DNA from: Zootoca vivipara
Lineage: Eukaryota
Length of the DNA: 64,000 nt
Direction of reading: 5' to 3'
Assembly: GCF_963506605.1 (NCBI RefSeq)
Contig: NC_083292.1
Span: 35,836,001-35,900,000, forward strand
Every line of letters starts with the position of its first letter. Position 1 is the first letter of the stretch. The position numbers and the translations under genes were made by a program. This document shows, in pieces, positions 33,206 to 64,000 of this stretch. Under the pieces are notes generated by a model, which was not told the DNA's origin, ran no database searches, and was given only the letters and a program-made list of their open reading frames with translations.

Positions 33206-33207
<2 letters not shown>

Positions 33208-39350: not shown

Positions 39351-39507
39351 GCTTGGTTCCCATGCTTGTCATAATTTAAGCAGACCCATTTAAATCAATG
39401 GACATGTCTACTCAGATTGGTAGTTGGATGCAACCCATAGTTTTCATTGCTTGTTTCTTGGATATGATGTTACATATGTGCCTGCCTATGTCTTTCCAGA
39501 CTCAACC

Positions 39508-40856: not shown

Positions 40857-42601
40857 CAGGGGCGTACCCAGGATCAAAACTAGGGGGGGGGCAAGCCATG
40901 GTCATTCAGGGGCGGGGCCAAGGCACGGGAGGGGAGGGGCCACAAAGTGGGAATGTGGGCGGGGCTACAGGGGCAGTGGGCCCGACGACTCGGCGGCGGC
41001 GGCTGCAGCCGCTAAATGAACCCCCTAAACTCTCTCACACGAAATTCCCCTGCTCTGAAGCAGGGCTGTTTCTAGGCCCGGGTCCGGTGGCGCGGGGCAC
41101 CAGGCCACCAGGGGCGCCGCTGCGTCTGCTTAGAGGCATGGCAGAGGCCGCCCCAGGCGCACCTCTCAGCTGTTCAGCAGCTTCAGGCTGCTTTCCGGAG
41201 GCGCGCAGGCCTGGGGCCGCCTCTGTCGCACGCAGGGGCGTCACAACAGGGGGCGGGCAGCACCCCCTGGCCCAGGGCCAGCCCTACGGCCAGGCTGGGT
41301 TGCGCAGGGTTTCGGCCCTCCAGGCGGCAGCTGCGCAGTGAGCTGCGCCCGCCGCGCCGGGAAACGGGGCGGGGTGGGGGCGCCAGAGGGATCCGTCACA
41401 GCACGGTGCCAGGGCGCCAGGTATGCTTAAGACGGCCCTGCTCTGAAAACACTGCTCCCATTTATGGCTAGCCAGCCCCCTGAAAAACCCTTTTGGGCCC
41501 CGCTTTTCCTCCTCCAGGTTCCCCCCGAAGCCTTGCCAGTTCCCACCCTATATATCTGGGATGGGGAAGGAGCTCAGAAGTCTGCTAGTCCTGGGGGGCC
41601 ATCCCCCCGTGGCCTGGGAGGATACTGAGACCCCCCCACCAAGCTGAGACCCCCAAAGAAGAAGAAGAAGCTGCCACCGCCGCCTCCCTACCACAAGGGA
41701 GCAAAAGATGGGAAAGGTGGGGTGGCGCAGTGCAGGCGAGCGAGCCCCCCCCCAGCTGCGATCCTACGGTGGCGGCAGCTGCTCCCCCGCCCTCAACGCC
41801 CCTCTCTCGGCAGGGGCAGCAAGGGAGAGCGGCTGGGGGGGCGCATTGCAAAGAAGGAAACAGCAGCCATTGCCCGGAGAGGGCAATGCACGCAGGGGGG
41901 GGGCGAAGAGCTGTGCCGCCCCACAAGGCAGCTCCTTTCCTATTGTTGGGGGTGGGGGGGCGGCGAGGAAGGGTCACTGACGCTGGGCTACTCCTGCCGC
42001 CGGCAATCCGGCGCAAACACCCCCAGGCAGCTTCCTTGCAGCAGCCACGACCACCGCCTTCGGGCGCCGCCCCCGACTCCTCCCTTGCGGGCTTCTGCCC
42101 GCCGAGGCTGAACTGGCTCCTGTCGGTGCACTTCCTCTCCCGGCCCAGGAGGAGTCTCAGTAGCAACTCCTAACTCAGTGGGGGTAGGGGGTTCGGAGGG
42201 GGGGGGAAGGGGGCGATTCCCAGCCCGCGGCGCCGATGATCGCAGTGCAGCCTACCAGGAGGCAGAGTGCAGCAGCGGCTGCAACCAATGCAGGGAGCCG
42301 CGTCTCCTTCGCTTGCCAGCCCAGCAGAACTTTTAGGCAGGAGAGGTTGCCGTCCGGCAGGGCTTTCCTTTGGGAGGCGCGAAGGCTTTAGTGGGTGGGA
42401 ATTGGTGCAAATGTAGGCAGGGCGGGCTGAGAGGAGGAGCCGCCGCCGAGGAGCCGTGGCACCAGCAGCGTTTCCTCCCCCCCCTCCCGTGTCAACAAGC
42501 GGGGCGCCTGTGCAGGGTATTTGCTTCCCTAGTCGGGCCCGTGGTTTGGCCTTCTAGGGGGGGCAGCTGCACCCCCCTGCCCCATGCTGGGTACACCCAT
42601 G
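40857..42601. mobile_element. GC/CpG-rich non-autonomous hAT element (1745 bp, right arm only)
   Basis: TIR CAGGGGCGTACCCAG / CTGGGTACACCCATG, 8-bp TSD CATAGAAC; empty site at ~26835. Confidence 0.85.
41061..41440. mobile_element. Nested hAT MITE
   Basis: Ends CAGGGCTGT / ACGGCCCTG, 8-bp TSD CTCTGAAG/CTCTGAAA. Confidence 0.75.
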
Positions 42602-42688
42602 CATAGAACTAAGAAATCAAGAGAGAGGTATCACTGTTTTTTAAGAAGGTCTATTCAGCAATGGGGGGGGGGACTTCAAATTTGGATT

Positions 42689-43037
42689 AAAGGTAGAGGG
42701 ACCCCTGACCATTAGGTCCAGTCGCGGACGACTCTGGGGTTGCAGCGCTCATCTCACTTTATTGGCTGAGGGAGCCGCCGTAGAGCTTCCAGGTCATGTG
42801 GCCAGGATGACTAAGCTGCTTCTGGCAAACCAGAGCAGCACACGGAAACGCCGTTTACCTTCCTGCTGGAGCAGTACCTATTTATCTACTTGCACTTTGA
42901 CGTGCTTTCAAACTGCTAGGTTGGCAGGAGCTGGGACCGAGCAACGGGCTCACCCCGTCACAGGGATTCAAACTGCCAACCTTCTGATCGGCAAGCCCTA
43001 GGCTCAGTGGTTTAACCCACAGCACCACCCGTGTCCC
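42689..43037 (-). mobile_element. Sauria SINE (intact copy)
   Basis: Head GGGACACGGGTGGTGCTGTGG, ACCTTT tail. Confidence 0.9.
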
Positions 43038-46000
43038 CAGCATTGATAAGGCATAGAACCAAGGAAATAAAGAGAGAGGTATCACTGTTTTTTTTAAGAT
43101 GGTCTGTCTCAGCAAGAGGGGAAAACTTCAAATTTGGATTAGAGGGACATTTAATGAACATTCCATTCATTTCTTAGATTCTGTAGATCAAATTGATTTA
43201 CTGATAGCAAATATCTATAAAAACTGACCACTGGCTTTTTAGTCTCAAAGGATTTAACCAATTGTTCTAATACCTCTGGTGTATTAGATGCTGGGAAGGC
43301 TGCCAAAGGCCTGAGAGAAGAGGAATGTTTTTGCCTGGCACCTAAAGATATTTAATGAAGGCATCAGTTGAACCTCCTTGGGGAAAGCATTCCAAAAACA
43401 GAGAACCACAAAAGAAAATGTCCATTTTCTTTTTGCTTTCCATCAGACCTCTCATGGAGTAACTTAAGACGAGTCTCAGATGGTGATCCCAGGTACTGGG
43501 TCAGTTCATATGGGCAGAGGTGGTCCTTGAGATATTGCAGTCCTGAGCCATTTAAGGCTTCATTGGGCCAAGAAACTAATTAGCCAGTGGAGTCAGTGGA
43601 GTCAGGAGTTATATGCTCAAACCATCCTGCCCTAGTGAGCAACCCAGCCACCAAATTCTGCACCAGCTGATGTTTCTGAACTGTTTTCAGAGGCAGCTTC
43701 TAACCTAGTGGTAGAGGCAACAGAGGTTAGGCCAGTGATGGCCAAACTTGGCCCTCCAGCTGTTTGGGACTACGATTCCCATCATCCCTGACCACTGGTC
43801 CTGTTAGCTAGGGATCATGGGAGTTGTAGTCCCAAACCAGCTGGAGGGACAAGCTTGGCCATCACTGGGTTAGGCTATCCCTGTTCAGATAGCAGCTCAG
43901 CTGGCTCACCAGCCAAATCTGATGAAAGGCACTCCATGCCACCGAGGCCAAATGAACCTCAAGTGACAGCAATGGAACCAGAAGGACCTCCAAGCTGTTC
44001 CTTCGGGAGCTATGTAACCAGGCCACCTCCCATCTATCCAGTCTACGGAACCACCCACTAACTGTATCTCAGTCTTATCTGGACTGAGCTTCAGTTTATT
44101 GGCTCTCAGTCAGTCCATTACCAAGGCAAGATAACTGCCTGGCACTTCCACTGACAAGCCTTGATATATTAATTTTAGAAACCTAGGATAAAATACTAAC
44201 TGCTGACAGACAGGAAAAATTGGGGTTTTTTGCCCTTCCGGATTTGGAGTTGTACCGTGTGGCAGCAGGTTTAGTCTGGTTAAAAGAATGGATAACCTTA
44301 AATGACCCAGAGATATTAGACCTAGAAGGGGTGGATTACCAATATGGTTTGCATTCATACTTAATATATGATAAAGTTAAAGTCCACAAGGGTTTCTTGA
44401 ACCACTTGGTAAGGAAGTCACTATACCTGATTTGGTCAAAGTATAAGGGAATTCTGGAGCCCAAGATCCCTCTGTGGGTATCACCAAAAGAGGTTGTAAC
44501 AGTGCCATTATCTTGATATATAAACGAGAAGTAGAGCTGTGTGTCATAAGCATATCCGGCACTGTGGTGCAAAACTCCCTCTGGTTCCCACCCCCACCCC
44601 CATTCCCCAGAGTTGTTGATCTTTTTCTTGGGAGGATGGTTGCAGGGCTAGAGGAGGCGGGCAGCGGCTGGAGGGCAGCTCCTCTGGCGGGGAAGAGGCA
44701 GAGGCTGGATGCGGTGCCTTCCAGCTCAGCTGGCCACTTCGTGTCGCGGTGGCAACGGCAGGCGGAGGCTCCGGGAGCGGCGCTGCTTCGGGCGAGGGTG
44801 GCGAGTTGATCTTGGCTGGCGCCACATCCAGCCTCTGCCTCTTCCCTGGCACCCTCCAGAACTTGGCACCCTGGCGCTCTGTGCCACTAGCCTCTATGGG
44901 TAAGACACCCCTGCTGAAGACCCACTCCAAAACTCCAGATAACCCCACTCAGCAGTTTCATGCAGATGTTAAACAGCATGAGGGATAAAATCAAACCCTC
45001 ACGGAGCCAAAGAGCACTTCCCAAGCACCACCCACAGGAAATCTAAGTAGGACCGGAACCACTGCAGAACAGTGCCACTCACGTTTATCTTAGGCTGGAT
45101 CTAGACACATCCAAGAAGTGTTTCACTTTCTACCACATGTGGTGGTTATGTAAGAAAATACAGGTATTCTGGGAGAGTATTCACTCAGAACTGCAAAAAA
45201 TGATAAAGATCTCCTTTAATAAAAAACCAGAAGCCTGTCTCCTGGGAATTACAGATTTGGGTATTCTGCAAAAAATCTTTTTATATGCTACGGTGGCAGC
45301 AAGAGTTCTCATAGCAGCAAAATGGAAGAGCATTGAACTTCCCTCTATACATGAATGGATCCAAAAGCTGACAGAATATGCCGAATTAGATGGTCTATCA
45401 GAAAAAAATAAAGAATAAACCAAAACAGGAATTTGTTTCAAAATGAGAGGTTTTCAAATAATATTTGAAATATGATTACAGTAGTTTAAACTCTGTTGCA
45501 GCATTCAAGGAACTTCAGTAATAATTGCAAGTTAGACATAAGAGTTATGATATATTAAGAAAAAGTTAAATTATGATAAAAGTGTGTACGTATTGGAAAT
45601 TAGTAATATGAAAATGAAATAAGGAATAGAAGGGAGGTTAGGTCTATAGTGTTAAGACCAACTTATTTTTTATTGTTTGGTAAGAAAATTTTGTGTTTAT
45701 TGTTATTCTTGTGTGTAATTCTGTATCTGAGTTTTCTTTTTTCTTTTTGTATCAATAAAAATACTTTTTAAAAAAGAAGTGTTTCAGTGAAATGCATTGC
45801 AAACTTTGCATGAGAAATCAGGTTGGCGAAAACAGAACTCCACAGCACCATCTGGTGTTAGAATGCATAAACAATGCATATAAAAACACTTTTTCTTTGC
45901 CAGTGTTCACCAGATTATGAGTCCACTGCTTTTAACCACTACACCACACTGGCTCTAAGTTATTGCTTTAGCATGGCAAGTTAGTAATTCTAACACTTGG

Positions 46001-48382
46001 AACAAAGAGATGGGATGTTTGTGTTTGGCTTGCTAGGGAAGCAACTTTAGAATATATGAAAGTGTACTGTAGCCTGTGTGAGAACTGGTCAAGGCTAGAA
46101 CCACCTATCCAACCTATTTATCACAGTATTTTGCAGGAGGGTGAAACAAGGCATTATTCCAGAAATCCTTGTCAAGATTCTGTGGAACTGCAGTAAGCTC
46201 CTATTTGGATTTTATGAATATACAAAGACATACATGGAACAGAAACTTGCAAATATTTGGACTCTATGAATGAACTGATCTATTGGGACTTCCGTTTACT
46301 TTGTTACACTTTATGTGTTCACTATGTGCAAGAGAAATATTTGATACTGTGATGAATACAGAAGAGCATTGTTTATGTGAAAGCACAGCCAGTTACGTTT
46401 TGTGTGTTTGATCCTGATCGTAGACAAAGGATGTGAAAGCTGCGGTCCTCCAGTTTGGAAGAACTACAGTACTATAGTACCCATCAGTCCCAGCAAGCAT
46501 GGCTGATAGGAGCTGTAGTCCAATGACATCTAGTTGGCTGTAGCACCTGCAGGCACCTGATCCCTGTCTTAGACAAAAACAGTTACACCCAAAGGAGGCT
46601 GTGACAGAGGTTCTACCTGTACCATTATCCTTCTGGTCAAATTGGTTTATGGGCCGAATAGGTAATGCCTTTTCTATGATTCTCCCAAATGATGGAATAC
46701 AATTTCCATTTAAATGAGAATTGTCTCACCTGTGCATTAAAAAAAAATTAAGCAGGTTTTAATTGGTATTGTTTTGAGTTACCTTTTCATAGAATCATAG
46801 AAACGTAGAGTTGGAAGGGACCCCAAGGGTTCTAGTGCAACCCCCTGCAATGGAGGAATCTCAGCTAAAGCATCCATGACAGATGGTCATCCAACGTCTG
46901 CTTCAAAACCTCCAAGGAAGGAGAGTCCACAACCTCCTGAGAGAGACTGTTTCGCAGTCAAACAGCTCCTACTGTCAGAAAGTACTTCCGGGTGTTTAGA
47001 TGGAATCTTCTTTCTTGTAACTTGAAGCCCTTGGTTCAAATCCTGCCCTCAAGAGCAAGAGAAAAACAAGATTGTTCCCTCTTCCATGTGAAAGCCCTTG
47101 AGATATTTGAAGAGGGCTATCCTTTCTCCTCGGTCTCCTCTTTTCCAAGCTAAGCATGCCCAGCTCCTTCAACCATTTTTCATAAAGCTTTGTTTTCTTT
47201 GAGGAAAGGGCTGTAGCTCAGTTGTAGAACACCTGCTTTGCATGCAAAAGGTCCCAGGATCAATCCCTATCATCTCCAGGGAGTGCTAGGAAAAGGACTC
47301 CTGTCTTAAACTCTGGGAGATGCTACAGCCATTATAGACCTTACCGAGCTAGGTAGACCAATGGCCTGACTTTGTATAAGGCAGCTTCTTGATTTTTTAA
47401 CTGGGGTCATTTAAGGCTGGGTTCATTTAACTGGTAAGTTGTTTTTAAATGACTAACTTTTATTTGCTGGAATGCATGTCGATTTTGGGTGTCTCTTATC
47501 TGCTTTAAAGAATTCTTGAGCTTTTCTCATATAGTAGCTTGATATATTCTGCTTATCTCCTCTCATAATTCTAGAACTTGGGGCCATGCAATGAAGTTGA
47601 ATGTCAGAAGATCCAGGACAAGGGGTGGGGCAATGACTTCTTCAAATAGGGCATATTTAAACTACAAAATTCTTTCACACAATGGTTAAGAGATGGTCAT
47701 CAAATTGGATGCCTCTAAGACAGGGTTAGACAAATTCATGGGGGATAAATGACTACCAGCCATTATCTCTATATGTCCTCTCCCCACTGTTGGGGGTAGC
47801 CTATCTCTGAATGCTAGTTGCTTAGAAACACAAGTAGGGAATGATGCTGTTGCACTTATGACATGCTTGTGAGCTTCCCACTGGGTCATCTGGGCTGTGT
47901 GAGAACAGGGTCATTGATAAGATGGGCCTTTGATCTGATCCAGCAGGCCTACCCTTATCTCCTTGTAAGAGATGTGCCCCTAAGAGCAACTTGCCCGAAA
48001 GTGTATGCTTGCACTGATAAAAAAAGATAATGTCCCAATGAGGTGCCAAACTAAGAGAGTCAATTCAGAATGAACTTTAATGGAAACATGAAAAGTGTCA
48101 AGCAGGCAATTGTAAAAGAAGCAGGACAGGAACAAGGCAAAGGAACACACTATACAATGTGGCTCTCAACTTCTTCTTGGTCTGGAGGGTCTAGTGGGAA
48201 AGCATGAGAAAGGAAAGATGACAGAGACTCGTGTAAATGCTGTTGGCTTAGATGATGGTCCCAGAAACTCAGATTTTCCAGAATCCAAGGTGAGACACTC
48301 AATAATGGATAGGCATGATCTTCACCCATTCAGGGTCATTCAAATCATCATCACACAGATTTTCTTCAAGAGTTCAATATAT

Positions 48383-48871
48383 CTAATTGCACACACTACC
48401 ACGACGCCCCAGCAGGGATCTCCTTCCAAAGAGGCCACCCCTCCTCAAACCATAGCCCCAAGAGCTTCCAATGAGGCCATCCCCATAGCCCCACCCACCG
48501 TAACCATAGCCTCCTACGATCCCGGAACCACCAACAGCACATGGAGTGTTGCCTCCAACAGACACGGGCTCACAGCTGGCAGAGAGGATGGGCCCTGGGA
48601 TGGTCAGGACGGAGGCAGGTGGCTGGATCACGACCTCTGCTGGTGGGATCTGGTTGACGCATGATGGGGCAACTCCTGCCAGGACTCCGAGGTTGGTTGC
48701 TCTTTCAGCACCTCCATAACCATAGCCAAGACCTCCATATCCGTAGCCTAGACCTCCATATCCATACCCAAGACCTCCATACCCATAGCCAAGACCTCCT
48801 GCTGATCCAAATCCAACAGTGGGGGTGGAAGCACAGGATGGGACAGCACAGAATGGACCACAGTCAACCAT
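48383..48871 (-). CDS. Corneous beta-protein g6, 162 aa (mirror of g3)
   Basis: Same core as g3, four GGLGYGY repeats; acceptor ending 48890; ATTAAA 48081-48076. Confidence 0.95.
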   Translation of the reverse strand: MVDCGPFCAVPSCASTPTVGFGSAGGLGYGYGGLGYGYGGLGYGYGGLGYGYGGAERATNLGVLAGVAPSCVNQIPPAEVVIQPPASVLTIPGPILSASCEPVSVGGNTPCAVGGSGIVGGYGYGGWGYGDGLIGSSWGYGLRRGGLFGRRSLLGRRGSVCN

Positions 48872-49212
48872 TGTTGGGTAGAGATGAGTCTGAAACCAAG
48901 AAGAACATGGGAGCAAATGAACATGTGGAATGCCACTCCAATGGGGTATGCAGGGGACATTTAAATCAGCTGCCTTTGACAGTTCTAAAATTATGCCCCA
49001 ATGCTTGGATTCTTTATTGTTTTCTCTTCTTTTCACCACCACCCTTCTCTTCATTGTGGGTCCCAAATCCAAATACTAGCAACTCCAGGAATGTCTGAGA
49101 ATGTCATCTATCTGAAACTCTGGAGAATAGTTTCCAGTCAGTGAGGACAAAAGTGAACTAGAAGGTCCAATGGTCTATCTTGGTAAAAAGCAACTCCCAA
49201 AGTTTCTATTTA

Positions 49213-49522
49213 GAGACGCGGGTGGCGCTGTGGTCTAAAGCACAGAGCCTAGGGCTTGCTGATCGGAAGGTCGGCGGTTCAAATCCCCACGACAGGCGAG
49301 CTCCCGTTGCTTGGTCCCAGCTCCTGCCAACCTAGCAGTTCGAAAGCACGTCCGAGTGCAAGTAGATAAATAGGTACCACTCAGGCGGGAAAGTAAACTG
49401 TGTTTCTGTGTGCTGCTCTGGTTCACCACATGAACCTTGGCCAGTAAAGCGAGATGAGCACTGCAAACCCAGGGTCGTCCACAACTGGACCTAATGGACA
49501 GGGGTCCCTTTACCTTTACCTT
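49213..49522 (+). mobile_element. Sauria SINE in g6 intron
   Basis: Mirror of 18548-18858; TSD AAGTTTCTATTTA. Confidence 0.9.
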
Positions 49523-50340
49523 AAGTTTCTATTTAAACCAGACCTTTATCTGGAACAATGCATGCAGAAATCTTTCTTTCTTTTTCTTTTCCAGAGGAAG
49601 GACCATTACTCATTAACAGAACATATGTTTTGCATTCGATCCCTGAAATATGCAGGTTGGGCTGGGGAAAAATCTCTCATCTGAAGCCCTAGAGAGCCTC
49701 GGACAGTCAGAGAAGACAATACTGAACTCAATGGATCAATTTTAAGGCTGTTTCCTATATTATTACTTTCTTCGTCTGCCAAATCTTCCACGAGAACAAA
49801 TTTATATCAGCCTATGCAATAAATACTTCCCCTATGCCGACTTCTGTTTGTTTTTTATCTTCCTGATTGGATTTGCACAACTTGTGAGAGAATAAGACAC
49901 TCTCACCGCCTCCACCACCCAGGGAAACAAAAATGAATAGTTTTGAAAGAATGCTATAAGATGCAAGAAAGGAAGGGCTATAGTGAATTGTTAGAGCATC
50001 TCCTTTGCATGCAGAAAGTCCTGACTTCATTCCCCAACATCTCCAGGTTAGGTTTGGAAGAAAAACCTTCCTTGATGCCCTGGAGAACTGCAGCCGATCA
50101 AACATTACATTGCTGGACGGATAAAAACTCTGGTCTCGGTGTAAGGCAACCTCCTAAACGTTTGTGTTCAGAAGAAATACATAGAAAACAAGCCAGCCAG
50201 CAACATGGAGGATGTAGGATTCCTGGTGGAATAGCAACATACCCCACAACATAATGGAATTTTAGAGTTCGCTTGGAATTTGGTTAGCTGAACCCTCTGA
50301 GCAGTGCAAAGATCCCAACATACATACACATTTGACTTAC

Positions 50341-50427
50341 CAAAGTCTCTGAGCAGTAAAAATGGAGAGAAGGAGATCAAGTCAAGTAAAGCTGTTGGAA
50401 TATCTCAGCCCAAGGAACCCTTTTATA
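50341..50427 (-). promoter_or_regulatory. g6 core promoter and non-coding exon 1
   Basis: TATAAAA 50427-50421, ACAGCTT starting 50395, donor at 50341/50340. Confidence 0.85.
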
Positions 50428-52239
50428 CTCTTTTGACTGTATCCCCTGATGGCCCCACAGCTAACTGGGATACACCCCCTTTCCCTGAGGCTTTAATTAG
50501 CAAGCGATTTATGAATTGCATCATGCCCTCTAATTGTTTTAATAAGGAAGGGAAAACGGGGCAAAAGAGTTCACATTTCCTCTGCTCCCCACAACGCTTC
50601 TTTCCCATTCTCACCCTTTTGATCTTTGCATTCTCATTCTTCCACAAAAGAAGTTAATAAAAAAAAATTAAGAAAATGTAAAGATGCCTTTGTATGTTCA
50701 TTTCGGACAGATCAACAGGTGCTATGGCTTTGAAGAGAATTAAAGTAGCTGGAATGGCTGGAGATTTTATCAGTAGCCTACTTGACTTTCATATCCAAGA
50801 TTTCAGCTGATCATTCTGTTCACAGCACATAGCCAGTTCTTCTCTGCCTCCACTGTCAGAGGTAGCATGCCTCTGAATACCAGTTGCTGGGAATCAGAAT
50901 TGGGGAATGGGACAATGAGTTCCTGTCCTTCTTAGGGGATTCCTATTGACATCTGGTTGACCACTATGAGAACAGAATCTTCCTAATGCTCTAGCGTTCA
51001 TTGACACATAGATGTCACATACACATGTATGATTAAATGTACCCAGTGAAGTGAAATGATTTTGAAGAGTTAGCAAAAAAATCACAATTATTTGAAGCCC
51101 ACCCCCAAATAAAACGATTGAAGATATAAAAGGATAATGTAGGCAGGGATGATGCAAAACATCTGGAGGACCACCACTGTATTAGACACCACTTTCCGCA
51201 CCACTGTCGTACTAGACACAAGTCCCAACCAATCAGGGATCACATATTAAATTCTCTTGTAGTATTAGCCACCCCTAATTTCCTGAATTTCTAGCCCACC
51301 TGTGACTTGTAATGCCAACGTGACTGACACAATGCAAGGGTGAAATTTAATAACGATGCTTTTAAAAAATCCCTTGATAGCCACTTGTTTAAATCTTCAT
51401 CTTTGAGATCTGCATGGGGAATGGGGAATCCTACCCACTATTCCATCAATATGCAAGATCAGATGGGCAGATCGAAGAGCTGGTGCCTTCATGGTGATCG
51501 GTTGAGATCTGTTGGTATCCACACTGTTAGACACTTTCTGAAATGCTAAAGTTATTTTCAACTAGCTCATGTTAGACCTATTGAAAGCAATGGACAGGGT
51601 ATGCCAGGAAATGGGGAATTATGATCACATGTGGTGGAAGTGTAAATATGTACATTTTTTTTTTTTTGCAAAGGGTATTAAAGGAGATAACAGAAATCAC
51701 TGGGTTAAAGCTGACTGAAAGTCCAGAGGTAGCATTATTATCAATTTATGATGGAGTGGAAGGTTTGCAGGCTATGAATAACTTGGTCACAAATTTACTG
51801 ACAGCTGCACGACTTATTATAGCTAAGAAGTGGAAGGGGCAAGCAGAATATAAAATGGAAGAATGGTCTATATGGGATATAGCTGTTAATGATAAATTAA
51901 CGTGTCATTGAGGTAAGACGGGAAATATACAGGAGAAATTATTTTGAGGAAATATGGAGGGTGTTTGTAGAATTTGTACTGTTAAAACAGAAAGGGGTCA
52001 AACCATCACAAGAGGTGTTGAAATTTTGGGAGGTTGGATAGTTACAATGGGATGGTCTCAGTGGTGGGGTGCACATTTTTATTCTTATTTATTTATGAAT
52101 ATTACATTGTAGAAGAAGAAGAAGAAGAAGAAGAAGAAGAAGAAGAAGAAGAAGAAGAAGAAGAAGAAGAAGAAGAAGAAGAAGAAGAAGAAGAAGACAA
52201 CGAAAGCAATGGACAAGTCAGTCAACATCATGCATTTTG

Positions 52240-52484
52240 TTTTTGGTTTTTTAAATTCATCTTTATTTCTTATTAAAAAATCACAAATCCACACAAATCA
52301 ACACAATATAACATAACATAACATAATCAAACATAATCAATAATAAACACATCAACACATCAAGAAAAAGGAAAAAAAAACAAAAATAGAAGAATGAAAA
52401 AATAAAACAAAAAAGGGAGGAAAGTAACAACAACAACAAAATACAGGTTAAAAAAATAACTTCCAAACATTTAATATCGGTTCC
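52240..52484 (-). mobile_element. Short L1-type 3' UTR/poly-A insertion (right arm only)
   Basis: 11-bp TSD CATGCATTTTG (52229-52239, 52485-52495); empty site at ~15685. Confidence 0.7.
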
Positions 52485-53572
52485 CATGCATTTTGATGGA
52501 ACTTTCCTGAGAATGAGTTTATTGGATGCAACCCATCATAATTTCAGCTATGTTTGTGTGTGGCTTGTCGCTCTTAAATTAGCATGTTCTAAACTACAGA
52601 TTCGGAATACATGCCATACATTTTCTTGGCTTCCCAATATGCAAGTTTTAATTGCTTTTAAAGCTGCCTTTTTAAAAAGAAAAAAGTAGTGTTTTCTTTT
52701 TGGTTTCAACTTAGTACTGATTTTATATATCTGGTTTAGATGCTTACCATTATTTTGCTTGGGTTTTCTTTTTTTTAACCACACATGCACACAGACACTA
52801 TCTTCTATTGAAGTTGGAACAGCCCCCTCCCACTGATGCCACCCAGAAGACCACTCCAGATTAACTCTAGATTTTTGCCAGGCTGAAGGAAACAACTCTG
52901 ACCTCCTAGGACAAGTGAAGAAGATAACATATGAGCCCTGAAGCTGGATCAAACCAAAGGCCCATGTTGTCCAGCATCCTCTTTCCTGCAGTGGTCAACC
53001 AGATGCACAAGTAGAACATAGGGACCATAGCTCTTTCTCACTATTGTTCTCTTCCAAGTGGCATTGGTGCTCTCAGGTCCTAATTGTGAGTTCCCCATTG
53101 AGGCTTCTGGTTCTGCACTGGTAATACAAGATGCTGAATTAGATGGTCCTTTGGCCTCATCCAGCAGGGCTTTTCTGATGTGCTCAAGGCATTCAAGGAC
53201 ACCAATTTAATCTGATACCGGAGATGTCTCAGAACGTGTATGCAAAAAGCTTTGATCATGTCCTAGAGTCCCCTACACTGATGAAAGAGCTTTGATGATC
53301 TCCATCTCCTCCCTCTGGGTGTTTCTGATTTAAAACAGCAGATAAACTAGAGCAATTTGACTCAAGGTCAGCAAAATTAAAAGGAAGGGAGAGGGCAACA
53401 AACTGGTGTCAAGACTATTTGTGTTGCATTATTGCAACCACTTAATTTTGTGACCTCCCTCTTTTGTGCTTAGTAAAGTACTTTTGCACATGAAATTGTT
53501 GACAACTAAATAAAATGTTACGGTAGCTGGAAAGAGGCAGTCTCTTGGTCACAGGAGTGGCTGACAGAACGG

Positions 53573-53654
53573 TATAAAAATGGAAACTTCTCCCAGTTCC
53601 TCCAACAGCTTCATCTGACTCTCTGGTCTTCATTACATCTTCTCAAAGAAGCAG
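53573..53654 (+). promoter_or_regulatory. g7 core promoter and non-coding exon 1
   Basis: TATAAAA 53573-53579, ACAGCTT 53605-53611, donor CAG|GTAAGT 53654/53655. Confidence 0.85.
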
Positions 53655-54534
53655 GTAAGTCCATTTTCTAGGGGAAATGTTTCCGAATTTATCAAAAATT
53701 AAGACTAGATTGATTTTTCAGCTTCACACTTTCTAAGTGCATTTAATATGATATTGCTAGAAGAAAATCTAATTAAGCATTTTTAAGGAAGATGCGACCA
53801 GCATTTTTAAGGAAGATGCGACCAGCTCTCCATTTTCTTCCTTCCTTCCTAAATGATATTTACATATACACTTCTGCTTTTGCAGCAAAAAAACCTCTGC
53901 ATTTTACTCAAAAGTAAACTCAACTGTGATGTGCTTACTCTCTGGTAAAAAGACAAAGGATGGCTGTCTTATTTTTTCTCAAGCTCATCCCCAACTTGCT
54001 GGATAATGGTCCAGTATGTTCAAGATATATGTTGATAGCATTGTTGATAAAACATGCCTTTTTTTAAAAGAAACTTACTGGGTTATCTCAGCATTTTTTA
54101 TATTTCCAAACATCAGTATTGGGGGTAGCCAGCATAGAACTAGATGTTGTGGATTAAAACGACAAGACAAGGGGTCATTCATTAGTGGTCCATCCCCATG
54201 TTTTGCATGTACAAGGTCCCAAGATCAGTCCCTTACATCTTCAGTGGGGCCAGTAATGTCCCCTCTCTGGACGCAGGAGAGTCATTGACAATCAGTGTAA
54301 ACAATATTGACAATAAATACCTCATTAAGTATATGGCAACTAATCTTCTCATCACCCTTAGCTCAGAGGCTGCAGAGGGGAGAAGCTGGGAAAGAAGAAG
54401 CACCAGGGGAGAGAGAGCTGACAGACTCAGTGTCTTTAGAAAGCATTCCAGGAAACCCACCCACCCCCCGGACCTAGAGGGCATTGAAATAAGAGAACAG
54501 AAAGCTCAGGGGCACAAAGCACAGATCAGCCAAC

Positions 54535-54950
54535 ATTGTTGTTTAGTCGTTCAGTCGTGTCCGACTCTTTGTGACCCCATGGACCAGCGCAAGCCAGGCA
54601 CTCCTGTCTTCCACTGCCTCCTGCAGTTTGGTCAGACTCATGTTGGTGGCTTCGAGAACACTGTCCGATCATCTCATCCTCTGTCGTCCCCTTCTCCTTG
54701 TGCCCTCCATCTTTCCCAACATCAGGGTCATTTCCAGGGAGTCTTCTCTTCTCATGAGGTGGCCAAAGTATTGGAGCCTCAGCTTCATGATTTGTCCTTC
54801 CAGTGAGCACTCAGGGCTGATTTCCTTCAGAATGGATAGGTTTTATCTACTTGCAGTCTCAAGAGTCTCCTCCAGCACCATAATTCAAAAGCATCAATTC
54901 TTCGGCGATCAGCCTTCTTTATGGTCCAGCTCTCACTTCCATACATTCCA
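54535..54950 (-). mobile_element. BovB 3' fragment in g7 intron
   Basis: Mirror of 13010-13410, retains the (CAA)n tail. Confidence 0.9.
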
Positions 54951-55337
54951 ACGTAGGGGTGACATATAATAGGAGAGACAGAGGGGGTGGGGTTTCACTC
55001 AGAGCAATGACATTAACCCGAGATGATACGTTTCTAAGTCTCTCTGTGTGAACATTGAATAAAATACCTTGGTAAGAACGTCTTGTCTATCTATTGCTGG
55101 CAGCCTGCCGTGAGGGAGGGGGATTGGATTCCCTGAAGCCTGACACTTCCCTTCTTCTCTTTCCATGGTTCATTTTGCATATCTTTTATCCCTGCATATT
55201 TTACAAAAAAACCTATATCAATGGGTTTTCCATTATTATATCCATCAAAAATTATTTGCACTGTTGAATTTATCTTCATGCTGCCAGAGTTTTCAGCTGT
55301 ACACATGCAATTTTATGTTTTAGTTTCATCTTCAGCC

Positions 55338-55826
55338 ATGGCTTTCTGTGGCCCATCCTGTGCTGTCCCATCCTGTGCTTCCACCCCCACCGTTGGATTT
55401 GGATCTGCAGCTCTTCATAGACGCGGAAGTCTTGGCTACGGATACGGAGGTCTTGGCTACGGCTATGGAGGTCTCGGCTATGGTTATGGAGGTGCTGAAA
55501 GAGCAGCCAATCTCGGTGTCCTGGACGGAGTCATCCCTTCATGCGTCAACCAGATCCCACCAGCAGAGGTCGTCATCCAGCCACCTCCCACTGTCTTGAC
55601 CATCCCAGGGCCCATCCTCTCTGCCAGCTGCGAGCCTGTGTCTGTTGGAGGCAACACTCCATGTGCTGTTGGTGGTTCCGGGATCGTAGGGGGTTATGGC
55701 TATGGAGGGTGGGGCTATGGGTCTGGCCTCCTTGGAAGCTCTGGGGGCTGGGGCTATGGTTTGGGCTCCGGGAAGGGGGCACTCCTTGGAAGGAGGTTTG
55801 GGCGCCGTGGTAGCATCTGTTCATAG
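55338..55826 (+). CDS. Corneous beta-protein g7, 162 aa (protein identical to g2)
   Basis: Translation identical to g2; acceptor AG 55322-55323; AATAAA 56050-56055. Confidence 0.95.
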   Translation: MAFCGPSCAVPSCASTPTVGFGSAALHRRGSLGYGYGGLGYGYGGLGYGYGGAERAANLGVLDGVIPSCVNQIPPAEVVIQPPPTVLTIPGPILSASCEPVSVGGNTPCAVGGSGIVGGYGYGGWGYGSGLLGSSGGWGYGLGSGKGALLGRRFGRRGSICS

Positions 55827-56595
55827 GTCAATTAAACCCGAGAATCATATTACGAACTGATAATCAGAGAGCTTGATACAGATCCATTCACTAAGGTTCA
55901 GAAGACCTGAATCCAAGCAACCGCTGCTGAAGTTGAACCCTCTTAATTCCCCCCTCTGTATTAGGAAGTTGAGAAGACCAAGAACTATCTACAATATGCA
56001 CCTTTTTGCCCTATTGTACAACTATCCTTTCTTTTTCTTTGACCTTTTCAATAAAGCTTGTTCTGCATTCTGATAACCTGTGTGTCTTTGTTTTTAAAAC
56101 TCCACCTCCAGCTTCTCGTAGCAAGGTGCCCAAGGTCTTAAACCCTTTTTTGTCCAAATCAAAATTGGAGTATTGGGGGGGGGGGAGTATCTTTATCTCT
56201 TGCATCCTGAAGGGTTTACATTGAGTGTGGAAAAGGCATGTTATATTCCTCTAGAAATTACTATTCTCCTCTTATTCAACATGAGTACAGGATCTCTCTC
56301 CGGGGCACCCTGACTGGTTATTCATTCAGAGAAATGAATCATAATCAGGGGCCAAATGCAACTTTTTGCTGATTGCTAAAGGTCCAGGGAGGGTGGGTTA
56401 AATAGGTGCAAGGAAGCAGTTGTGCCCCTTCTCCTGATTCCTCTTTGCTGTCATTTGGGGAAGTGGGTCATAATTAAATCATATGACTGGGGGAATAGAT
56501 TTCTCATAACAACAGGGAAGGTTATAGGGTTCAAGAAGAGTCCTTGGTGCGCCTTGATTGGGGGTACATATCAAGTGACCCTCAAGAGTCTAGAC

Positions 56596-57419
56596 CAGGG
56601 GTCAGCAAACTTTTTCATTTTTTTAAAATAAATTTTTATTAGTTTCTTTCTTTCAAAACATTAACACACAACATGTTTACAGAAAAGAAAAGAAAAACAT
56701 TCTACAGTACATACAAAAAAATCTTTAACAATAGAAAAAAAGCAAAAATATAAATTAAACATTCATTCATGTCTTCTCTATGTTGACTTCCAATTTTTCA
56801 CTCTGTAATTTACATATATTATCCTTACTATATCGCACAATTCTTATTCTATTTACTCATTATATTTCCTTTAACTTCAATTTAGGTTCAATTATGTTCT
56901 GCCGTTTGGATTTTGGATATCTTATTATCCAATATATATTCACCAAAGATCCTCCATTCCTTTTTGTTTTGTTTTGTTTCGTTTGCCCTCTAATTCTTCC
57001 AGTAAATTTTGCTAGCTGTGAGTATTCTTTCATTAGAATTGTTCCTTCTAAATATAATTCCAGAGGATATTAAAAGTGCAAATAGAACGCTGTTAATGTA
57101 TGGAATAGTAGCGGCAAGAGTATTAGTCACAAGAAACTTGAAAAGCAAAAACACACCCAGCATACTAGATTGGCAAATTTTAATGAAGGATCGGCAAAGT
57201 TTTTCAGCGGGGGGCCAGTCCACCGTCTCTCAGACTTTGTGGTGGGCCGGACTATTTTTTTTTGGGGGGGGGGGTGGATGAACATATTCCTATGCCCCAC
57301 AAATAACCCAGAGATTTTAAATAAAAGCACACGTTCTACTCATGTAAAAACACGGTGATTCCCAGACCATCCGCGGGCCGGATTGAGAAGGCGATTGGGC
57401 CCTAGTTTGCCTATCTATG
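56596..57419. mobile_element. hAT MITE with nested inverted L1 fragment (mirror of 10548-11390)
   Basis: TSD GTCTAGAC. Confidence 0.75.
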
Positions 57420-57427
57420 GTCTAGAC

Positions 57428-57563
57428 CAGGCATAGGCAACCTTGGCTCTCCAGATGTTTTGGAACTACAACTCCCATGATACCTAGCTAACAGGGCCAG
57501 TGCTCAGGGATCATGGGAGTTGTAGTTCCAAAACATGTGGAGAGCCAAGGTTGCCTATGCCTG
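57428..57563. mobile_element. 136-bp hAT MITE (right arm only)
   Basis: TIR CAGGCATAGGCAACCTTGG, 8-bp TSD GTCTAGAC. Confidence 0.85.
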
Positions 57564-57989
57564 GTCTAGACATTACTGGACTCCAGCTCCTGTCATCCCT
57601 GTCCTTGGGTCAGGATTGCTGGATCTGGTGCAAGTTAGAGTCCAACAACTTTTGCAGAGTCAGAGCTTCCCCATCCCATCCCATCCCATACCTAAAAGCA
57701 TGAAGTGGGAGTGACAAGTCTTGTCCTAATGGTGAGAACTATGGACTCGGAAAGGACAGAGGAAGAGAAGAAGAGAGAGCCCTGTTGGGTCAGGTCAAAG
57801 GCCTTTCTTGTGCAGCATCCTGTTCTCAAAGTAGCCAATCAGTTGCCTATGCCAAATATGTTTCCGTATAATCAGATAGGAATAACCATGTTATCACATC
57901 ATTGCAGTGTGAAAGTGCCTATCTAATCAAAAAGTCAAGGAGGAGAGAGGGAGAGAATAGAGATCCTTAAGTTTAATGAGGACATATAA

Positions 57990-58342
57990 TGTCTGGCTCG
58001 AGGGATTTTCTCCTCCCCCAGTAGCATCAAGGAAGAAACAAGAAAGTTCGTATTTATGGTTTTATTCAGTCATCGTGGTGAAAGGCAAATAATTCCAGTC
58101 TTTAACTCCATACTGACGTTGCTCACTCTGATCTCCTCCCCTTCCTTCCCCAGCAACAGCCTGTGGCTCAGCAACACTCCTGAGGGGGGCCTCAGGAGTC
58201 AAATGTTGTTGAGCCCTTGGCTCTTGAATTCTCGTTGAGCGGCGAGTATGTGGGGATGGTGGAGATTCTGTGCTTTCCAAGGACATCTCTGCTGGCAGTT
58301 CTCCAACTCCCACTCCTTCTTCTGACACCTCATAACTTGGCA
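57990..58342 (-). mobile_element. 5'-truncated copy of the 9267-9771 solo LTR, now in the g8 3' UTR
   Basis: Reverse complement of 9437-9771; AATAAA at 58066-58061. Confidence 0.8.
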
Positions 58343-58415
58343 AATCTAAAATGAGACATAAATAGTCCACCCCAGATCTCTTTTTCTTTCCTCCTTGCTG
58401 ACAGACCGTGAGAGC

Positions 58416-58925
58416 TTAGCAGGGGGTATAGCAGATGCTGCCTCTACGCCCCACAAACCCATAACGGCCACGGCCCCCCAAAGCACCAGAGCTAGACCCC
58501 AGAAGACCTGCACCACCATAGAGACCTCTGCCAAATCCACTGCCAAATCCACTGCCAAATCCGGATCCATAACCGCCAGCAGCACATGGGGTGTTGCCTC
58601 CGACAGACACAGGCTCGCAACTGGCAGAGAGGATGGGTCCTGGGATGGTCACGATGGAGGCGGGTGGCTGGATCACGACCTCTGCTGGTGGGATCTGGTT
58701 GACGCATGAAGGCTGGACTCCAGAAAGAATACCAAGACTAGCAGAAGGGACGCCGGATCCAACCAGGGCACCGGAGCCAAAGCCATAACCAGAACCATAG
58801 CCAAATCCACAGCCAAGGCCACCGCCAAGGCCACTGCCAAGGCCAACAAGACCGGCTGATCCAAAACCAACGACTGGGGTGGAAGCACAAGATGGGACAG
58901 CGCAGGATGGTCCACAGGAAGCCAT
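58416..58925 (-). CDS. Corneous beta-protein g8, 169 aa
   Basis: Paralog of g4/g5; acceptor ending 58934; intact ORF. Confidence 0.93.
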   Translation of the reverse strand: MASCGPSCAVPSCASTPVVGFGSAGLVGLGSGLGGGLGCGFGYGSGYGFGSGALVGSGVPSASLGILSGVQPSCVNQIPPAEVVIQPPASIVTIPGPILSASCEPVSVGGNTPCAAGGYGSGFGSGFGSGFGRGLYGGAGLLGSSSGALGGRGRYGFVGRRGSICYTPC

Positions 58926-59691
58926 GGTTGAGTCTGGAAAGACATAGGCAGGCACATATGTAACATCATATCCAAGAAACAAGCAATGAAAACTATGGGT
59001 TGCATCCAACCACCAATCTGAGTAGACATGTCCATTGATTTAAATGGGTCTGCTTAAATTATGACAAGCATGGGAACCAAGCCTCTGATTTTTCAATTTC
59101 TTTAACCCTGCAAAGCTTCATTCGTTACATACCGATATACTTACTCCAGAACAATGTTTTTTTTCATATATTCTTTAACACAACCCCGTTCTTTTGCTCA
59201 TTTTTAGTCCGTTTGTCCACCTTGAGGATGGTGTAAATCTTGCCAAATTTATATATTCACAAAGTTTAATTTGCCATTCTTTTATTGATGGGATTTCCCT
59301 CCCTTTCCAATATTTTGCTATGAGCATCCTGGCAGCTGTTGTTGCATAGAGGAATACTTTCCTTTGATTGCCAGGAATATCGTTTGTAATTACACCTAAA
59401 TTATACCAGTCTTTGGGGGCCAGTGGAAACATTTTATTTTTGAAAATAGTTACTATAGGGGTGGGGAGGCATGGCCTATCAGAAATCAGCAGCATGCTTC
59501 TAAATACCAGTTGCTGGAAAATCCAGAAAGGGAGATTGCAATTGCATGTGGATCTTATGGGTGGGTTTTCAACAGGCATCTGATTGGCCTATGTGAGAAC
59601 AGGATGCTGAACTCAATGGGCCATTTGCCTGATCCAACAGCAGTTCCCAATACTGCTATTTAGATGAGGATCCTGGAATAAATCTCTACCC

Positions 59692-59827
59692 CAAGCATCC
59701 CCAAACTGCGGCCCTCCAGATGTTTTGGCCTACAACTCCCATGTTCCCTAGCTAACAGGACCAGTGGTCGGGGAAGATGAGAATTGTAGTCCAAAATATC
59801 TGGAGGGCCGAAGCTTGGGGATGCCTG
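59692..59827. mobile_element. 136-bp hAT MITE in g8 intron (absent from g5)
   Basis: Ends CAAGCATCCCCAA / TTGGGGATGCCTG, 8-bp TSD CTCTACCC. Confidence 0.85.
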
Positions 59828-60783
59828 CTCTACCCCCTCCCACACAGAATTACATCTCTGTTTCCAAAGAGAGAAGAAATATTAAATCAGTTTTAGGTTT
59901 GTATCATAGGTAGACACTCCAAGCATATAGAATAAAACATGCTGAGAATGTGGAATTCTAAATCCCCAGCTAACTGTTGAAAGGCGTTGGAAATTCAAAA
60001 GAGCTAGACATGTGTGTGGAAGTCTAAGAGAAATACTTCAAAGGAACTAGGTAGCACAAATACACCATGAAGATTTAGTATAAATGTGCATTGGTATTTA
60101 AAATCTCTGAGACAAGTCCTACGTTGGCAGGTATAAGTAAATGGGAGCAAACTGGAGCTCCTTCTGAGATGAATCAGTGTAACTATTCTAAAAGCTCTCC
60201 ATAAAGTAATATTTCATAGAATCACAGAACTGTAGCTTTTTACACCATCAATTCCTATAGCCATCAATTCAGACCTCCAGTGTAGGAGATATTGACTACC
60301 CAACTCTCTAGTCGATCACTTCCTTCATCAAACCAATCGGTTTCTTTGGGGAAGGATTCTGGCTCTGTTTAAAGCATCTACTTTGTAGGCAGAAGGCCCT
60401 GGTTCAATCCCCAGCATCTTCAGGTAGGGTTGGCAGATACACCCAATGTGGAACCCAGTATAGACCAGTTGTGGGGAATCTTTTACCCTCCAGGGACTGC
60501 TGAACTACTACATCCATCATCCCTGGCCATTGGCCATGCTTGCTAAGGATGACAGGAGACATAGCTCAGCAACCTCTGGAGGACCAAAGGTTTCCCACTC
60601 TTGGTGTATCCCACTCCTGGTGTAGACAATAATGAGCTAGATAGACCAATCATCTGAATTGATATAAGGCAGCTTCCTGTGCTCCTTGCTTTCCTACAAA
60701 CTGTGCTATGTCCAACCAATATTGACCTTCCTCTAGTTTTTACCCATTCGATCTATGCAAGGACTTGGACAAGCCAAGCTTAC

Positions 60784-60867
60784 CTGTGTTGTTTTGATGA
60801 GTGGGAAGTTGAGAGATGATGAGAGGTGAAGCTGTTGGTGAGCCGTGGAAGAAGGAGAGCTTTTATA
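60784..60867 (-). promoter_or_regulatory. g8 core promoter and non-coding exon 1 (same type as g5)
   Basis: TATAAAA 60867-60861, ACAGCTT starting 60835, donor at 60784/60783. Confidence 0.85.
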
Positions 60868-61833
60868 GCATCCTCATGGAGTCCTTAATGGTTGGGAGAC
60901 GCCCCTTCACACTTAATGTCTCAATTATCCACGATCAAAATCTGCTGCTTCCATCATAGTCTAAAATTGCTTTAATAAGCCAAACGTTGTCAGGATGCCA
61001 ACTCTGTAATCAGCTTATTACACAACATGTTCATTTCCCCCCCCCCCCATTTCTTCCCTCCGGGGATTGTACACTGTGTTCCGTTGGCTTGGGAAGGAGT
61101 CTCGTTGGGAGGAAAAGTGGGACTTATTTCCTTTCGTTCTGTTTTTAAATATACAGCATTTTTTTAAAAATGAAAATACAAAGAAAGAGCAACTACGATA
61201 GAGCCCCCAAGTGTCCTTGTTTTCCTGGGGACAGTCCTTGATGTACAGAAGCTCACCCAGTCTCTGATTTGGTCCCAGAATGTCCCACTTTTCCTTAGGA
61301 TGTCCCTATTTTCACTGAAGAAATGTTGGAGGGTATGGAGTTATACAACCCCTGAGCCTAGGAGATAAGTAATTATACAACCTTTAGAAGACACCTGAAG
61401 GCAACCATGTATAGGGTCATTTTTAAATGTCTCATGTTTTATTACATTTTTATATATGTTGAAAGCCACTCAGAGTGGCTGGGGCAACCCAGAATCTCTA
61501 GCCGTTTTTTTTTGGGGGGGTGGGGGGTTACAGGAAAAGATGTGCAGGTCCCTTCAAAGCAATTTCTGTGAGATCAGACATGAGCATGGTGGGGAACTTG
61601 TATATTTTTTTTTCTGGAAACTGAGGTTATTCACCTTTTGAAAGCCACAATTTCCAGAGTTCCTTTGTTTGTTAAAGAGTTGTTTGTTAAAGCACCCTGG
61701 AAATTATAATTCTCTGCTGGGAATAGGGGTGCCCTAACAACTTTTTGCCCCCCTTAACAAACTGCAGTTCCCATTCTTTGGGGACTTTAAATATCCATGG
61801 CTATTTACAGCACCCTAATGATGCTTTAAATGC

Positions 61834-62198
61834 GGGACACGGGTGGTGCTGTGGTCTAAACCACAGAGCCTGGGGCTTGCTGATCGGAAGGTTGGCAGTT
61901 CGAATCCCCGCGACTGGGTGAGCTCCCATTGTTCGGCCCGAGCTGCTGTCCACCTAGCAGTTCGAAACACGTCAAGTGCAAGTAGATAAATAGGTACCGC
62001 TCCGGCGGGAAGGTAAACGGCGTTTCTGTGCACTGCTCTGGTTTACCAGAAACGGCTTAGTCATGCTGGCCACATGACCCGGAAGCTGTCTGCGGACAAA
62101 CACTGGCTCCCTCAGGCTATAGAACAAGATGAGTGCATAACCCCAGAATCGTCCACGACTGGACCTAACGGTCAGGGGTACCTTTACCTTTACCTTTA
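61834..62198 (+). mobile_element. Sauria SINE
   Basis: Mirror of 36416-36781. Confidence 0.9.
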
Positions 62199-63554
62199 AT
62201 GATGCTTCACCTATATAGATGAGATGGGCCTATATCTTTTTTTAAAAAAAATGCAGACTGAATCAGATGAATTCAACTTAAGATGGGGGATATGAGAAAC
62301 AGAGAGAGATTGGAATTCATAGTCTTCAATTCCACCGTTCCCAGGATTCATTGGGGGAAGCCATGGTGATTGTGTTAAATGGATATTGTCGGTGGCACCC
62401 AAGGCCAGATTTAGGTTTGATGAAGCCCTAAGCTGCTGAAGGTAACGGGGCCCTTTATATGTCCAGCTGTCCTTTGTCAACAACAAATTATCACTGGTTT
62501 TTGTGTGTGTTGAATATATGCTTTATGATAATTTATGGACCTAATAGGTATCTAAAGCCATTTGCACATAACAAAATATGTATTTTATCAAAGTAATTGT
62601 TGAACTGAAATACAATTAAGAAGTATATTAATAGTGAAATACAATTAAGAAGAAGTATATTAATAGTTAAATTAAGCTCTAACTTAAAAGGATTTCTTAT
62701 TCATAACAAACTTAATAAGGCAAACACATTGGCATTTGGCAATAACAAAAGTTCCTTTAGAAACACAATTTACAAAGACTCATAATCTAGTCACTAGAAA
62801 CTTGCTATAACATGAAATAATAATAGGTGTAAATATATGATGCAAACTACGAATCATTCTAAATAGCTACAGTATATTAATATGAAATTAAGTGTTATAA
62901 CCTGTACAATGCAATTGTAGTTAATACAATGCATTTTTATATAATATCAGTATCACTATAGTAGTCCACACTGTTCATTGGGACAGCAGACCTTATTTGT
63001 TTTTTATCTTATATTTTGGAAATGTACACCCAGGTTTCTTTTCCTTTAATTTTTTTTGGGGGGCCCAAGAGAGTGGGGCCCTAAGCTATAGCTTGCTTAG
63101 CTTATGCGTGAATCTGGCGCTGTTGGTGCCTGATCAGCTGAATAGTGTGAACCTCACAGGGCAATTCCAGAGTCAGCAATCTTAACAGGAAAAAACCCCA
63201 CAAGCAACTTTGTGGCTAGAGGATCATCTCCATGCTTTGATGCCTTCCGCTGGTGTCAGGTACCAGGTGTTGGCTGTTTGGGTTTCCTGCTAGAGGATTC
63301 TTGATGGCTTTCCAAAATTGTTGACAAGATCAGAAGAAACCAAGAAAGCAAGTTAAGTGCCATGACCCCATGCAATCCTGCATTCCAGCATTAATTGAGC
63401 CACTTTGCACTGCTTGTAATTATTTGCCCATAAAGAAAATTGTAGTGTGTGCTTGATAAAATGCTCAGTTTATTTAATTCAAATGATCTGAATGTGTTTT
63501 TCCCAGGGTTTAATGCAAGACAAGCTTAAAGTTTGCACAGGTTGTACTTAATCT

Positions 63555-63934
63555 ACTTGAAAGATCTACATTGGCTCCCAGTACGTTTCCGAGCACAATT
63601 CAAAGTGTTGGTGCTGACCTTTAAAGCCCTAAATGGCCTTGGTCCAGTATACCTGAAGGAGCGTCTCCACCTCCATGGTTCTGCCCGGACACTGAGGTCC
63701 AGTACCAAGGGTCTTCTGGTGGTTCCCTCATTGCAAGAAGCCAAGTTGCAGGGAACCAGGCAGAGAGCCTTCTCGGTAGTGGTGCCCGCCCTGTGGAACG
63801 CTCTCCCATCAGATGTCAAAGAGAAAAACAGCTACCAGATTTTTAGAAGACATCTGAAGGCAGCCCAGTTTAGGGAGGCTTTTAATCTTTAATCGATTAT
63901 TTCATTTCATTTTTCTGTTGGAAGCCGCCCAGAG
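63555..63934 (+). mobile_element. L2 LINE 3' fragment
   Basis: Mirror of 34680-35060. Confidence 0.9.
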
Positions 63935-64000
63935 AATGAAGAAATCTCAGCTAGAGCATCCATGACAGGTGGCCATCCAACCTCTGCTTAAAAACCTCCA

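Follow-up and report, generated by a model that had tools for sequence, protein, structure and literature searches.

A reptile corneous beta-protein gene joined in its 3′ UTR to part of a solo LTR: a predicted new 3′ end within an inverted, partly triplicated gene cluster

Genes at the locus

The 64-kb stretch of DNA analysed here (the window) contains eight related glycine-rich open reading frames (ORFs; g1 to g8) that span positions 5445-58925 in alternating orientation (+ - + - + - + -). All four of the ORFs that were scanned (g1, g4, g5 and g8) matched the Pfam family PF02422 (Keratin) above its curated cut-off (for g8, 31.3 bits against a cut-off of 25, E 1.6e-07), and the cluster is one of reptile corneous beta-protein (CBP, beta-keratin) genes, with repeats of squamate appearance. 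An exact-sequence look-up of the g8, g5 and g4 proteins in a protein collection returned a match for none of the three (0/3).

A TATA box, a short predicted non-coding exon 1, one GT-AG intron and a single coding exon are common to g4, g5 and g8, the exon layout that the available part of PMC11431283 gives for genes of the epidermal differentiation complex (EDC) with a single coding exon. No spliced reads or contigs were seen in the four runs aligned to 57650-59250. In g8 (minus strand throughout) the TATA box lies at 60861..60867, the non-coding exon 1 at 60784..60840 (its start placed by the TATA spacing, with a donor GT at 60783), the intron at 58934..60783 (1850 nt, GT-AG intact) and the coding exon at 58416..58925, with an open frame for a CBP of 169 aa. 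Its promoter is near-identical to that of g5 (one difference per 250 nt in the bin 60750-61000). The corresponding parts of g5 (plus strand) are a TATA box at 37728, a coding exon at 39508-40029 and a native AATAAA at 40541. The third gene, g4 (minus strand), combines a coding exon of the g5/g8 type (28172-27663) with an intron, an exon 1 (donor 29443) and a TATA box (29528) that occupy 28299..29528 and come from a different, older paralog. The g4 intron also contains a 171-bp near-perfect palindrome (28936-29106, 94.7% self-complementary), probably a small inverted-repeat element.

Elsewhere in the cluster, an older pair of inverted copies (87-6289 versus 17748-11872, ~75-80% identity) comprises g1, g2 and the region upstream of each, which suggests repeated inverted duplication among these CBP genes. 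A 129-base run of N (973-1101), distant from the g8 junction, marks an assembly gap.

The solo LTR and the junction at the 3′ end of g8

Two copies of one long terminal repeat (LTR) are found in the window. The parent copy is an intact solo LTR of 505 bp at 9267..9771 (plus strand), with TG..CA ends, 7-bp inverted termini and a 5-bp target site duplication (TSD), TTATA, at 9262-9266 and 9772-9776. The element is a member of a multi-copy dispersed family, as evidenced in two genome-sized runs, X1 and X17, by bins far deeper than the flank (in X1, 425-1777 versus ~52; these are summed depths and do not give a copy number) and by variant loose ends at 58026 (six contigs in X1, nine in X17). The 5′ end TGTCA fits the TGTNR terminus pattern of Gypsy LTRs (PMC2836005, in the part available), and the TGT..ACA ends with a 5-bp TSD also fit class III endogenous retroviruses (ERVs), for which both are reported (PMC8278194, likewise in part). 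A solo LTR does not separate these superfamilies, and "LTR-retroelement-derived" is the label that the evidence allows. Of the "retroviral-derived" 3′ end that a sequence-only reading of this DNA had proposed for g8, the derivation from an LTR therefore stands, and the retroviral part is one possibility, since Gypsy and class III ERV both fit.

The second copy, at 57990..58342 (minus strand), consists of the 3′ 353 bp of the LTR in sense orientation with g8; its 5′ 170 bp were lost at the junction, and its right TSD (57985..57989, minus strand) was brought along in the duplication. It contains 18 bp (58225-58242) that are missing from the 9-kb parent copy. Run X1 reproduces the g8-side form, these 18 bp included, with 0-1 differences from the window (records 2-4), so the two LTR copies diverged after the duplication.

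Homology of g8 to g4 and g5 covers the coding exon and continues for 76 nt into the 3′ UTR (58340..58415, minus strand, three shared bases included) down to 58340, from where the sequence matches 9437 onward. The join (58340..58343) has a 3-bp microhomology, GCA on the plus strand or TGC in gene sense, found at 58340-58342 in the UTR parent and in the LTR parent alike, and next to it a base (58343) that matches neither parent; a 3-bp microhomology with an adjacent mismatch and a join with one inserted base describe it equally well. The sequence-only reading had placed the end of UTR homology ~75 nt past the g8 stop at this same GCA, with continuation into the middle of the solo LTR in the orientation of g8, and our alignment agrees on both points. 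Around the join, 8/12 parental bases are shared, a degree of microhomeology reached by 0.36% of 255,867 UTR × LTR position pairs for a 12-nt window that was picked after inspection; the chance of an exact 3-mer at a fixed offset among such pairs is 1.7%. Three g8-specific changes fall within the last 19 nt beside the junction. A repair-induced mutation cluster was considered for these and dropped, the change at 58353 being absent from the junction contigs of both X1 and X10; the change at 58358 is likewise absent from X1, judging by the overlap of X1 records 5 and 6.

Architecture of the rearrangement

Self-comparison of the window gives the layout A-B-C / D′C′B′ / C-D, with two copies of B, three of C and two of D, and with the middle block inverted. 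Segment B (9437..27587, plus strand) comprises the LTR part, g2, g3 and the 3′ flank and UTR of g4, and its inverted copy B′ (40105..58342, minus strand) the g5 UTR, g6, g7 and the LTR part; the two differ by 308 substitutions in 15,309 aligned bases (2.0%). Segment C (713 bp) is present at 27587..28299 (minus strand; g4 coding exon, 76 nt of UTR and ~120 nt of intron), inverted at 39382..40105 (plus strand; g5 coding exon) and in g8, the three copies showing pairwise differences of 17, 17 and 12 in 712 bases (1.7-2.4%). Segment D′ (33801..39382, plus strand) contains the promoter, exon 1 and intron of g5 and is an inverted copy of the g8 upstream region, segment D (59051..64000, minus strand). 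The two are collinear to the window end, where 63935-64000 matches 33866-33801 at 98.5%, and differ by 127 substitutions in 4,608 bases (about 2.8%).

The transition:transversion ratio between B and B′ is 143:145, with 43 of the 143 transitions at CpG. A ratio near 1 is low for vertebrate DNA, so some of the differences between B and B′ may be consensus errors.

The arms also differ in their mobile elements. A 345-bp element with inverted termini and flanking 6-bp direct repeats (9827-10171) lies in segment B and is missing near 57940, where the g8-side empty site is imprecise and excision-like; contigs of a second, related organism (organism B, run X17) break at 57938-57943, as expected if the element is present there. 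A second, unrelated solo LTR-like element with TGT..ACA ends and a 5-bp direct repeat (33891-34223) is located inside a stretch of 815 bp (33866-34681) that has no counterpart upstream of g8, at 63934/63935.

The homology of g4 to g5 and g8 ends at 28299, which makes this position a candidate for the other junction of the rearrangement (junction 1). Past it, the intron stretches shared by g4 and g8 are only 80-89% alike. The break motif at 28299 has ten matches at ≤3 mismatches against 0.34 expected, three of the ten being the C copies themselves. Because the intron, exon 1 and promoter upstream of 28299 are those of the older paralog, g4 would be a promoter-swap chimera or, alternatively, the recipient of an exon conversion tract.

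Such an arrangement is reminiscent of the DUP-TRP/INV-DUP rearrangements of human genomes, inverted triplications formed by template switching, in which segments are duplicated, triplicated and duplicated in turn. According to the available part of PMC11293582, in their haplotype structure 1 junction 1 forms between inverted repeats (pairs 98-99.9% identical in human), and junction 2 has 1-9 bp of microhomology in 14 of 24 human cases. By its order of segments the window layout matches this haplotype structure, the g8 join taking the place of a putative junction 2. Both junctions lie in cis within the assembled window, and the segment divergences are compatible with one event.

The junction in other samples

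Four of 24 runs (X1, X10, X17 and X22) were aligned to 57650-59250, and the junction was bridged by contigs from two of them, X1 and X10. In the genome-sized run X1, record 5 (58268-58373; depth 49.3) crosses it with 72 letters to the left and 31 to the right, and flank contigs nearby have depths of 52.4, 55.4 and 39.1. In X10, record 9 (a 676-nt contig, 57711-58385) crosses it with 43 letters to the right. These two runs come from different studies and bear flank variants that are not in the window, which puts the junction in three haplotypes or more. The g8 junction is thus real, not an assembly chimera: the rearrangement junction proposed at 58342, for which reads across that position had been suggested as the check, is borne out, and the assembly chimera named beforehand as its refutation is largely ruled out.

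In organism B (run X17) the same flank adjoins the LTR end (record 57943-58050), and the gene contig leaves the window at 58340. No junction-bridging piece was found among the matches listed for this run (8 of 437 records), which suggests that the rearrangement is absent from organism B. The longer non-LTR pieces among the matches listed differ from the window by ~4-9%, above the 2-2.8% that separate the duplicate copies. With the LTR present at the same flank in organism B, and with that organism more diverged than the duplicates, the LTR insertion is older than the split between organism B and the window organism, and the rearrangement probably came after it.

The new 3′ UTR and its polyadenylation signal

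The first AATAAA or ATTAAA past the g8 stop is the LTR AATAAA at 58061..58066 (minus strand, +350), as the sequence-only reading had indicated; the native signals of g4 and g5, both at +512, have been lost from g8 together with the rest of the ~510-nt UTR, again in agreement with that reading. A U/GU-rich stretch at 58028..58045 (minus strand), 15-32 nt after the hexamer, is a candidate downstream element, and the two together make the LTR signal, somewhat more probably than otherwise, the main cleavage site of g8. Genes often adopt LTR poly(A) sites that lie in sense orientation (639 human sites; PMC2553571). That a signal is present here is in itself unsurprising, since an AATAAA follows within 276 nt (the gap between junction and signal) for 19-22% of random points in the window, and within 350 nt for 23-27%. 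The new UTR has no UGUA and one AUUUA, versus four to five UGUA and two to three AUUUA in the native UTRs. Cleavage at the LTR signal may be leaky because the native upstream UGUA motifs are gone. As for the "altered mRNA regulation" ascribed to g8, the loss of native UGUA and AUUUA motifs is real, and an effect on the mRNA remains a prediction.

Expression and selection

Our guess is that X10 is a transcriptome, as it is small (73.6 million letters in total versus 1,335 million in X1) and has no depth over the intron or the distal flank (58946-59250 and 57650-57703); a capture-type DNA library fits as well. X10 showed no splice joint in this region, and the 5′ part of the coding exon was also without depth. 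If X10 is RNA, g8 is transcribed across the junction. Its junction contig reaches 57711, ~330 nt past the predicted cleavage site, overrunning not only the LTR AATAAA but also the end of the LTR and a further ATTAAA (57977). Near 58045, none of the X10 matches listed has a loose end that resembles poly(A). This hints at read-through of the LTR signal. Cleavage there is still compatible with X10 and is not refuted by it, since contigs show neither RNA ends nor single molecules. Of the new LTR-supplied 3′ end claimed for g8, then, the signal is in place, but cleavage at it is not borne out by the sole RNA-like contig. This contig has a mean depth of 5.5 and the native-UTR contig one of 110, which sets them 12- to 20-fold apart according to how the depth is distributed; contig depth reflects expression poorly. 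The raw RNA of run X22 (~6% read) gave five reads, which fall without exception on a short repeat (57813-57847) and leave the gene uncovered, and is uninformative on g8.

The private changes of g8 are four nonsynonymous and three synonymous, with three glycine losses among the seven, and neutrality is not rejected (p 0.31). For g4 and g5 together the counts are two and six, with neutrality rejected (p 0.008), and for g4 separately zero and four. The contrast between g8 and g4+g5 is not significant (Fisher p 0.31). The open frame of g8 was rejected as proof of function, the probability of no stop in seven substitutions being 0.82. The promoter region shared by g5 and g8 has 8 differences in 731 positions, fewer than the background rate predicts (p 0.002); it was likewise set aside as proof of selection on g8, as constraint on g5 alone fits (p 0.32). 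The view of g8 as a "potentially functional gene" is thereby upheld for its parts (ORF, TATA box, exon 1 and both splice sites intact) and not for selection on it.

Origin of the g8 3′ end

The account that we favour, with confidence only a little better than even, is that an old germline DUP-TRP/INV-DUP in an alternating CBP cluster created the g8 3′ end as its junction 2, and that g8 is transcribed and uses the LTR signal. A replication fork would have broken near the acceptor end of the ancestral intron (28299/59051) and switched to an inverted paralog, forming junction 1. Copying would then have run backward through the paralog promoter, the ancestral gene and 18 kb of its 3′ flank to the middle of the pre-existing solo LTR, where a second switch, on the 3-base microhomology, would have led forward again, landing 76 nt beyond the stop in the 3′ UTR of the ancestral gene itself. 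The predicted products are a complete copy (g5), one with that coding exon behind another promoter (g4), and one that keeps promoter and coding exon but takes its 3′ end from the LTR (g8). Beyond 64000, the account calls for a plus-strand paralog and for a second, inverted occurrence of 28299-33801. Transcription of g8 would cross the junction, with a steady-state level probably below that of its siblings with native UTRs. The layout, the junction in other samples, the intact parts of the gene and the hallmarks of the LTR are observed directly; we infer the single origin of both junctions, the position of junction 1, the g8 expression level and the cleavage site. A stronger version, in which one template-switch event made two working regulatory chimeras (the g4 promoter swap and the g8 LTR 3′ end) beside an unchanged g5, both kept because they changed the place or duration of the mRNA, we regard as doubtful.

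The same DNA history could also have left g8 as a decaying copy, weakly transcribed from a promoter that is still intact, with read-through of the LTR signal, an unstable RNA and an incidental AATAAA, a possibility that we consider rather unlikely and yet take seriously. The X10 contig running ~330 nt past the signal and its depth of 5.5 against 110 would be expected of such a copy, as would the 4:3 private changes with three glycine losses (against 2:6 in g4+g5), a frame that is open by chance (P 0.82) and an AATAAA that arises so near ~20% of the time. However, the substitution contrast is not significant (p 0.31), and a de Bruijn contig can fuse an mRNA that ends at the signal with a rarer read-through or LTR-initiated RNA. 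Further, the LTR offers a canonical hexamer followed by a U-rich stretch, and the promoter shared with g5 is unusually conserved (8/731, p 0.002), though constraint on one copy fits this too (p 0.32).

A two-event history, which we rate as improbable, would have an inverted duplication producing convergent g5 and g8, and later a one-way copy from the g4 3′ flank (by break-induced replication or gene conversion) replacing the spacer, ending by microhomology in the g8 UTR, with the g4 coding exon homogenised by conversion; g8 would then owe its LTR end to replacement. Gene conversion within EDC subfamilies is indeed suggested in the part of PMC11431283 available, and at the candidate junction 1 no high-identity repeat is demonstrable, the partner repeat lying beyond the window. 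Segment D is also more diverged than B site by site (about 2.7% versus 2.0%, Fisher p 0.008), but the difference is gone once regional clustering is allowed for (p 0.11-0.35 under block permutation), so a two-step history is permitted and not required. The three C copies, moreover, are near-equal in divergence (17, 17 and 12 in 712), and a single event with two switches accounts for all breakpoints more economically. Finally, large inverted duplications are a familiar assembly artefact, and an assembly chimera or a false haplotype duplication could be read into the transition:transversion ratio near 1 and the one base near the junction (58353) reproduced in neither X1 nor X10. We give this next to no credence: samples of two different studies bridge the junction, each with its own variants, the X1 contigs match the g8-side LTR with 0-1 differences, including the 18 bp missing from the 9-kb copy, and the arms differ by separate insertions or deletions of elements.

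Significance and comparison with known systems

The g8 locus offers a base-resolved and dated example of how a fast-evolving epidermal gene cluster acquires copies with new regulatory ends. Between g5 and g8, promoter and coding exon are almost unchanged and the 3′ end is the main difference; the pair thus constitutes a natural test of a transposon-derived 3′ end, and its effect on the mRNA level is directly testable. If the reading of one event with two chimeras is true, the rearrangement class of human genomic disorders also builds germ-line gene families. LTR poly(A) signals and inverted triplications are each well known, so the importance of the case is modest unless g8 proves a major or stage-specific transcript. 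We found no report of the g8 case or of DUP-TRP in gene-family evolution in the literature covered, most subscription papers being outside that coverage.

The gene structures conform to those of squamate EDC CBP genes (PF02422), which, in the part of PMC11431283 available, have a TATA box, a non-coding exon 1, a single coding exon, glycine-rich tails around a beta core and tandem expansion by duplication. In contrast to these genes, the 3′ end of g8 is chimeric and the promoter of g4 is foreign; 3′ ends, inversions and transposons are not mentioned in that part of PMC11431283.

With the human DUP-TRP/INV-DUP cases (Grochowski et al. 2024, PMC11293582; available in part) the window shares the copy pattern, the inverted middle block, the two junctions and the short microhomology at junction 2. 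It differs in its age (copies 2-2.8% apart) and in its occurrence in several individuals, unlike a de novo disease allele, in the size of its triplicated part (713 bp versus at least 8.2 kb in human) and in a candidate junction 1 that is not within a demonstrated 98-99.9% repeat pair.

The outcome at g8 resembles the LTR poly(A) sites of host genes (Lee, Ji and Tian 2008, PMC2553571) in that a solo LTR in sense orientation, downstream of a host coding exon, provides the whole core poly(A) region, as a lineage-specific change. Unlike those sites, the g8 LTR did not insert into the UTR; its ancestral position was 18 kb away, and the rearrangement joined it to the gene. With the native UTR removed, its signal would be the only proximal site of g8, not an alternative one, and its use is predicted. 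An LTR-supplied poly(A) signal is thus an outcome of a known kind, and the less usual element here is the route to it, a proposed template switch that joined the gene to a solo LTR already in place and cost it the native UTR.
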